From the UHGV virus genome UHGV-0175259: a DNA stretch of 13,845 nt; one strand, 5' to 3'. Below are positions 13,786 to 13,845 of the stretch, piece by piece. The position numbers and the translations under genes are program-made. The notes under the pieces are model-generated. The model was not told the DNA's origin, searched no databases, and saw only the letters and a program-made list of their open reading frames with translations. This stretch comes from a virus. Each line of letters opens with the position of its first letter. Position 1 is the first letter of the stretch.

Positions 13786-13845
13786 AAACTATTAAACTAT
13801 TAAACTATTAAACTATTAAACTATTAAACTATTAAACTATTAAAC
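13786..13845. repeat. Tandem octanucleotide repeat (AAACTATT)x7.5, running off the right window edge
   Basis: Seven perfect copies of AAACTATT from 13786 plus a partial copy; about 200 bp upstream of the acyltransferase start. Confidence 0.9.

Follow-up and report, generated by a model that had tools for sequence, protein, structure and literature searches.

The right end of the DNA studied here consists of a perfect short tandem repeat, and just downstream of it a decayed prophage carries a gene for a putative surface-modifying acyltransferase. This raises the question of whether the length of the repeat influences the expression of the gene, or whether the repeat is of no consequence to it. 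We analyzed a stretch of 13,845 nt from a viral genome, which is called the window below, and the features of its right part are collected in Table 1. A preliminary description of the window had reported at least 7.5 perfect copies of an 8-bp unit, about 200 bp upstream of the acyltransferase start and continuing past the last base. These observations were all confirmed. TRF run on the whole window returned a period of 8, 7.5 copies, 100% matches and a score of 120, with no mismatch in the array. The array starts 198 nt 5' of the annotated ATG (A at 13587, minus strand), so the reported distance was correct, and rightward extension in the genomes of MRE162 UK and MRE162 FRA brought the array to 13.5 copies.

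Table 1. Coordinates of the octamer array and of the neighbouring features in the window; all three promoters are PSSM predictions.
Feature	Position	Strand	Description
Tailspike gene	9627..11606	+	659 aa, P22-type, convergent with the acyltransferase gene, Head_binding domain (Pfam)
Acyltransferase gene	11677..13587	-	636 aa, membrane protein, Acyl_transf_3 + SGNH (OafA/OafB architecture), Pfam
Leader	13588..13785	-	198 nt of unique sequence from array to start codon; 0 differences in 12 sequences
Candidate proximal promoter	13621..13629	-	extended -10 TGaTATTAT; last base 34 nt before ATG
Candidate distal promoter	13769..13796	-	-35 TTTAAT (13791-13796), 16-nt spacer, -10 TACATT (13769-13774)
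Candidate third promoter	integrase gene end + array	gene strand	weak pair TTGATG, 17 nt, TTTAAT
Octamer array	13786..13845	.	perfect (AAACTATT)n, here x7.5 with zero mismatches; (AATAGTTT)n on the acyltransferase gene strand

The array is exceptional in its surroundings. No other tandem repeat with a TRF score above 50 was present in the window, and the best score in 98 kb of the flanking MRE162 chromosome was 51. A 12-nt unit probe with up to two mismatches allowed found 8 sites in the window, 7 of them inside the array, while 2.0 were expected and none of 200 shuffles reached 8; by this probe scan, no octamer unit was found in the window outside the array. The A+T content of the array is 87.5%, stop codons are present in all six frames, and its duplex stability is the lowest in the 14-kb MRE162 locus. 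No inverted repeat was found near it. When three units were searched for in one genome per species, 66 loci were obtained, mostly in Bacteroidota and marine taxa, and none of them lay beside an IntS or acyltransferase homologue; the octamer repeat is not a widespread mobile motif. Our literature search returned no paper with even two octamer units, and none that mentions the repeat. The tailspike/acetylase gene pair had already been noticed in 2012 (PMC3303846), and the octamer repeat upstream of this phage-borne surface-modification gene in O104/K9 E. coli is previously unremarked.

The last 2.2 kb of the window had at least 99% identity to 24 of 5426 complete E. coli genomes, and a search of a phage database gave no match to the acyltransferase gene or its leader in deposited phages. 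The three MRE162 clones were the closest complete genomes; MRE162 UK and FRA were 100% identical to the window over 11600-13845 and differed by two mismatches over 8516-13845. In MRE162 the array is followed by a 50-bp 3' remnant of an intS-type integrase gene and then by unrelated DNA, and dacD begins ~630 bp past the array. The element is a decayed P22-like prophage between sbcB and dacD with its own integrase at the left end, and its content includes 434-like immunity, truncated replication genes, ant, the tailspike and the acyltransferase. The window is not colinear with MRE162 (L001 1204-2916), which lacks two of its internal segments (6571-7358 and 7723-8515); the window retains more replication-gene sequence than MRE162, and ~1.7 kb of the latter (P63C, arc, mnt) is missing from the window. 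Because of these two internal differences, we assign the window to a related strain outside the complete genomes.

Two further groups of repeated motifs were seen elsewhere in the window. Short runs of an 11-bp unit (TACCAGCAAAT / TACCAGCAGAT) at 6892-6918 and 6958-6989 sit in a replication-initiator-like ORF (6498-7397) and encode a duplicated peptide; by analogy with lambdoid phages, they may be origin iterons within the initiator gene. The repressor/cro intergenic region (5630-5700) contains three 434-type operator-like motifs (ACAAGAAA...TTTGT), which are unrelated to the octamer.

The preliminary description suggested that the copy number could change, and an invariant number across strains and within populations was to speak against it. 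The lengths were found to vary both across strains and within MRE162. Among the 24 complete E. coli genomes and the viral, metagenome and read-assembly contigs, the array ranged from 2.5 to 13.5 copies between essentially identical flanks, and every unit was perfect. Copies were counted directly in 10 genomes and were inferred from BLAST alignment ends in the other 14, a rule that agreed with the directly counted genomes. The longest arrays were those of MRE162 UK and MRE162 FRA (13.5 copies), followed by A11 from a giraffe (12.5), NCTC9104 (9.5) and one IMG/VR prophage contig (7.5). Arrays of 5.5 copies were found in MRE162 NOR, in ~15 assemblies of the O104:H4 2009/2011 outbreak clade, in a second IMG/VR contig and in one metagenome contig. 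Strain 55989 and the Korean strains NCCP15648 and NCCP 13905 had 4.5 copies, TOK-001 had 3.5, and four independent read assemblies, in which both flanks were spanned, had 2.5. The 198-bp leader had no substitution in the 12 sequences compared and the 1911-bp acyltransferase gene had 0-7, indicating that indels in the array arise much faster than point mutations. The MRE162 clones go back to a single isolate of 1949 that was distributed in 2002 and 2014 (PMC10652920). The difference between 13.5 copies (UK, FRA) and 5.5 copies (NOR) is therefore within-strain variation, at the level of assemblies and with a single hybrid assembly for NOR. Two features of SSR contingency loci are thus present, a perfect head-to-tail short repeat (7.5 units visible in the window, 13.5 at most in relatives) and, between conserved flanks, a length that differs from one close strain to another and among clones of a single isolate. 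We have hardly any doubt that the array is a real hypermutable repeat at the integrase/cargo junction.

The distribution of the alleles has some further properties. All of the ~15 assemblies from 2009 and the outbreak had the same 5.5 copies, from which short alleles appear to be fairly stable. The alleles represent all four helical phases and thus follow no strict phasing rule. No allele without the array was observed, the minimum being 2.5 copies, in isolates dating from 1949 to at least the 2010s. In the sbcB/dacD lineage (L001, L004, L007) the alleles were 5.5, 9.5 and 13.5, with steps that are multiples of 32 bp (~three helical turns). Arrays of at least 9.5 units were seen only where the integrase gene was truncated, in small numbers. 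Many short-read contigs assembled with k=31 stop inside the array, 28-30 nt in (L097-L101 position 1-30; L092-L096); consequently, most public draft contigs break there, and only the 2.5-copy alleles were spanned.

The position of the array in the phage module is precise. In O104:H4 and 55989 the order on the gene strand is argW, intS, array, 198-nt leader and acyltransferase, with the tailspike gene convergent; a rightward tailspike with cargo and int both leftward is also the gene order of CUS-3, Sf6 and HF4s. The integrase DNA is 98.2% identical to that of CUS-3 and ~96.5% to those of Sf6 and HK620. With its Head_binding tailspike, its 96-98% integrase and its argW site, the O104:H4 locus has the layout of a Lederbergvirus (P22-like) conversion module. 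There were 36 phage integrase matches, and all 25 of those listed begin no more than a dozen or so bases from the edge of the array (23 within one base); homology to the K-12 intS gene likewise stops at this edge. The array was absent from all phages among the matches listed. The common end of phage and K-12 homology makes the array the exact breakpoint between a conserved integrase and an exchangeable cargo slot, which is occupied by neuO in CUS-3, oac in Sf6, gtrABC in HF4s and gtrABS in K-12. The last three codons and the stop codon of the integrase come from the array (L002 8217-8232, O104:H4 2011C-3493), and the protein ends in ...DWLDGLIV*, where the relatives have ...DWLDEKVE*.

Cargo, array and integrase stub have moved together into at least three contexts. 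The first is argW, with an intact intS; the second is sbcB/dacD, with the 50-bp stub (L001 8295-8344), in MRE162 and NCTC9104; the third is ybhB, with a stub of ~75 bp, in A11, L079 and L080. The 50-bp remnant is all that is left of this integrase in the window's own lineage. For CUS-3-like phages, the reported insertion sites are argW and the interval between pgl and bioA (PMC9659370). The elements with the octamer array use these two regions (argW, pgl-bioA/ybhB). In the ybhB context, the sequence past the integrase stub (...tctgttacaggtcactaata...; L079 ~9555-9700, L089 1-160) resembles what we take to be the P arm of lambda attP, which is consistent with insertion beside ybhB/bioA. The preliminary description had considered that the array might belong to the att/junction region. 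The junction part of this proposal proved right, as the array lies exactly between integrase and cargo, but the att part did not: in annotated Sf6 and CUS-3 the att core is located 5' of int, at the end opposite to the array, and the array was rejected as an att site.

The neighbouring genes link the array to a particular bacterial surface. A 659-aa P22-like tailspike of the German outbreak strain, encoded beside an acetylase gene, was shown experimentally to target the O104 and K9 polysaccharides (PMC3303846). We equated the tailspike ORF of the window with the published protein by length, position and 97% nucleotide identity to O104:H4. The neighbour gene was flagged in the same report as "putative O-antigen acetylase EGR74046", which survives prophage decay; its role in O-antigen acetylation was a suggestion of Scholl et al. 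(PMC3303846). The 636-aa product contains PF01757 at residues 10-331 (E = 7.5e-24) and PF19040 at residues 399-627 (E = 1.9e-32), and it thus has the domains of an AT3-SGNH (OafA/OafB) protein. The gene has a G+C content of ~33-35% and is lysogenic-conversion cargo. All 10 genome annotations that were fetched list the gene as intact and give it a protein accession, and its identity is at least 99% in 24 of 24 genomes. Even prophages in advanced decay have kept it, with an intact annotation wherever this was checked. A G6-to-G7 frameshift at nt 802-807 of the gene, leading to a stop at codon 272 (L089 ~3802-3808; same site in L080), was carried by one IMG/VR contig and one metagenome contig, both with the lambda-attP-like context; either the gene may be truly inactivated there, or the extra G may be a sequencing error in the homopolymer.

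An O104-family wzy was present in all 24 genomes that carry the acyltransferase gene, compared with 37 of the 5426 genomes overall. MRE162 UK (L082 6413-15990, 21204-33284) has an O104/K9-type sialic-acid cluster (neuB, neuC, GT52, O104 wzy and wzx) at galF-gnd, and MRE162 also has an O8-type wzm/wzt ABC-transporter mannan cluster between wzzB and his; this gene content suggests an O8:K9-like surface. Neu5Ac is a constituent of the O104 polysaccharide, as are O-acetylated derivatives of the Neu5Ac,7Ac,9Ac kind (PMC7685785). From the domains and the company of the gene, it is a reasonable inference that the AT3-SGNH enzyme O-acetylates the O104/K9 polymer, and the prophage gene 11677..13587 probably acetylates the O104/K9 sugar coat of E. 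coli.

Our best explanation of the locus, which we would give as a whole a probability of roughly 0.4, is that a hypermutable non-coding repeat at the junction tunes the transcription of the acyltransferase gene by its length. The array gains and loses whole units through slipped-strand mispairing and lies at the integrase/cargo junction of a CUS-3/Sf6/HK620-type (Lederbergvirus) prophage, 5' of the gene for an AT3-SGNH O-acyltransferase. The module, an O104/K9-specific tailspike together with the acyltransferase, is confined to E. coli strains producing the O104/K9 polysaccharide, which contains sialic acid. A change in array length would alter the size of an A+T-rich and easily melted spacer upstream of the promoter, and would thereby shift the distance to upstream features, namely the integrase gene end and any read-through. 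Transcription of the acyltransferase gene might thus be tuned gradually. The locus would then act as a contingency-type control of the O-acetylation of the phage's own receptor, a functional analogue of neuO in the sister phage CUS-3 that works via non-coding DNA instead of the reading frame. We suggest only tentatively that the array affects expression of the acyltransferase, most likely as graded tuning by spacer length. It is a still more speculative step to see in it a second "mobile contingency locus" of E. coli, a non-coding switch or rheostat for O104/K9 O-acetylation that is convergent with neuO.

In our comparison, neuO of CUS-3 is the closest analogue of the octamer locus. The two have in common the phage lineage, the slot between int and tailspike and the insertion regions; both cargo genes survive prophage decay, and both loci carry a slippage-prone perfect tandem repeat with a unit of 7-8 bp. 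NeuO acetylates the K1 capsule of E. coli, a sialic-acid polysaccharide that is the phage receptor, and the acyltransferase may have an equivalent role. However, the poly-psi heptanucleotide repeat of neuO (AAGACTC, 19 copies in CUS-3) is located inside the coding region and turns translation on and off by frame, whereas the octamer array is non-coding and lies upstream of the gene. A neuO-type translational switch was rejected, since the array is outside the ORF and has stops in six frames. NeuO is a soluble hexapeptide-repeat acetyltransferase, and the enzyme of the octamer locus is a membrane AT3-SGNH protein of an unrelated family; no sequence similarity was found between the two cargo regions. 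neuO is known to be phase-variable (PMC9659370).

Other systems resemble the locus in part. Sf6 (oac), HF4s and K-12 CPS-53 (gtrABC/gtrABS) share the integrase family and the int-cargo-tailspike layout with it, and their cargo modifies the O antigen recognised by the phage tailspike, but their int-cargo spacer is unique sequence with no tandem repeat, and their integrases have the normal end EKVE* or EKVR*. The gtr operons and oafB (family II gtrC) of Salmonella are examples of on/off prophage-borne O-antigen modification, including that by an AT3-SGNH O-acetyltransferase, and AT3 O-acetyltransferases are repeatedly phase-variable (PMC9558356). The Dam/OxyR mechanism in Salmonella requires paired GATC/OxyR sites upstream, whereas neither GATC nor an ops element is present between the array and the ATG, and an epigenetic switch of this type was rejected for lack of GATC. 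In Neisseria meningitidis, an A+T-rich (TAAA)n tract is located upstream of the core promoter of nadA, and its length modulates transcription. The nadA tract has a tetranucleotide unit and defined IHF and NadR sites alongside; no sites of the IHF/NadR type were identified beside the octamer array.

The three candidate promoters of the acyltransferase gene came from our own PSSM, which is looser than a strict sigma-70 consensus scan; the strict scan of the gene strand in the int-cargo spacer called no promoter, and the proximal candidate was not among its calls. This candidate is at the same position as the putative oac promoter annotated in Sf6, and the array lies at least ~140 bp upstream of it, the best promoter-like motif, a distance at which array length need not have an effect. 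In the distal candidate, the array unit nearest the gene provides the -35. Copy number leaves the hexamers of the distal and the third candidates unchanged, owing to the periodicity of the array. The acyltransferase gene was absent from the supplementary tables of an O104:H4 RNA-seq paper.

Almost as likely as transcriptional tuning is that the array is a neutral repeat, formed at the recombination scar where the cargo joined the integrase end, and that the acyltransferase gene uses its own proximal promoter. The array begins exactly at the breakpoint of int/cargo homology, and the best promoter-like motif adjoins the gene at some distance from the array. The locus tolerates every helical phase and arrays of widely differing length; our searches gave neither a protein-binding nor an RNA signature, and no tandem repeat lies upstream of homologous acyltransferases in three viral contigs (31-61% identity). 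The divergence of the module is at most 0.3%, and at this young age a neutral repeat would still be perfect too, so that the perfection of the units is not informative. Units of 8 bp are generally held to be poor substrates for mismatch repair, and the instability of the array therefore requires no selection. However, no allele has lost the array across three chromosomal and integrase contexts from 1949 to at least the 2010s, its minimum remaining at 2.5 copies, and the surrounding 98 kb of E. coli DNA contain no second perfect array of comparable size. It would also be a notable coincidence if a neutral repeat had arisen upstream of a surface-modification gene and in the same slot that holds the repeat-controlled neuO in the sister phage.

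We consider it improbable that the repeat acts as a transcribed 5'-UTR element, with read-through from int or a promoter at the int end producing an RNA whose structure, processing or stability depends on the repeat. To some extent the arrangement would permit it: int and the acyltransferase gene share a strand, no terminator-like site was called between them on this strand, and the weak pair of the third candidate spans the int end and the array. A precedent is provided by hmw1A/hmw2A of non-typeable Haemophilus influenzae, in which (ATCTTTC)n, a non-coding 7-bp repeat, lies upstream of a surface gene as it does here and expression falls gradually as the repeat lengthens (PMC2424069; PMC12721329). 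The hmw genes belong to a different organism and a different gene class, and their natural copy range is 9-28, compared with 2.5-13.5 for the octamer array. The hmw repeat is transcribed and acts via a long 5'-UTR hairpin that is cut by RNase III, whereas no stable structure was predicted for the octamer leaders. Leader RNAs with 0, 5.5 and 13.5 units were less stable than their shuffled controls (z = +2.0, +1.4 and +3.0, respectively), so that no hmw-like hairpin is predicted, and the leader had no match to Rfam families at E up to 1. Moreover, MRE162, NCTC9104 and A11 keep the array, although the integrase gene and its promoters are deleted. A 20-codon ORF in the leader had no ribosome-binding site by eye and looks like a product of chance.

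The preliminary description had also mentioned a protein-binding array. This could mean nucleation or silencing by H-NS or another nucleoid protein, a prophage operator, or arm-type or att sites of the integrase, and we would give it only a slight chance. No other segment of the locus melts as easily as this very A+T-rich array, and the cargo is low-G+C foreign DNA, a typical target of H-NS. However, the unit occurs nowhere else in the window, and the repressor operators of the prophage are 434-like (ACAAG...TTTGT) and bear no likeness to the octamer; the suggestion thus gained nothing from our analysis. Arm-type sites occur in small, constant numbers and at intervals, and do not form perfect head-to-tail runs of variable length. 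Arm-type sites of the integrase were rejected for the array, which is kept at sbcB/dacD and ybhB in elements with other integrases, and the att core lies beyond int in the annotated relatives. Finally, a sequencing or assembly artefact, which the breaks of k=31 short-read assemblies in the array and the single assembly behind the 5.5-copy allele of MRE162 NOR might bring to mind, has a negligible probability, as the array and identical flanks recur in 24 finished genomes that come from many laboratories and platforms, as well as in two IMG/VR contigs and a metagenome contig. The contigs that span the 2.5-copy alleles into both flanks could not have been assembled without such reads.

Even if the array is neutral, it is a high-resolution length marker among near-identical O104/K9 strains and a predictable break point of short-read assemblies. 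To our knowledge, E. coli has very few contingency loci that are driven by repeats, and neuO is the textbook case. The parallel between neuO and the octamer locus is striking, but a regulatory role of the array is an inference. If tuning of the acyltransferase gene by array length is true, this phage family would repeatedly arm its receptor-modifying cargo with hypermutable repeats, here by a non-coding route, and the octamer array would be the second such repeat, again with a putative acetyltransferase for a sialic-acid polysaccharide, which it here precedes. O104 O-acetylation could then vary within a clone, which would bear on O104 serology, on the targeting of O104:H4 by vaccines, pyocins or phages, and on the interpretation of LPS structures. 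Lineages with the array, including those of the 2011 O104:H4 outbreak clone, would be heterogeneous in their antigenicity and in their susceptibility to O104-specific phages and pyocins.
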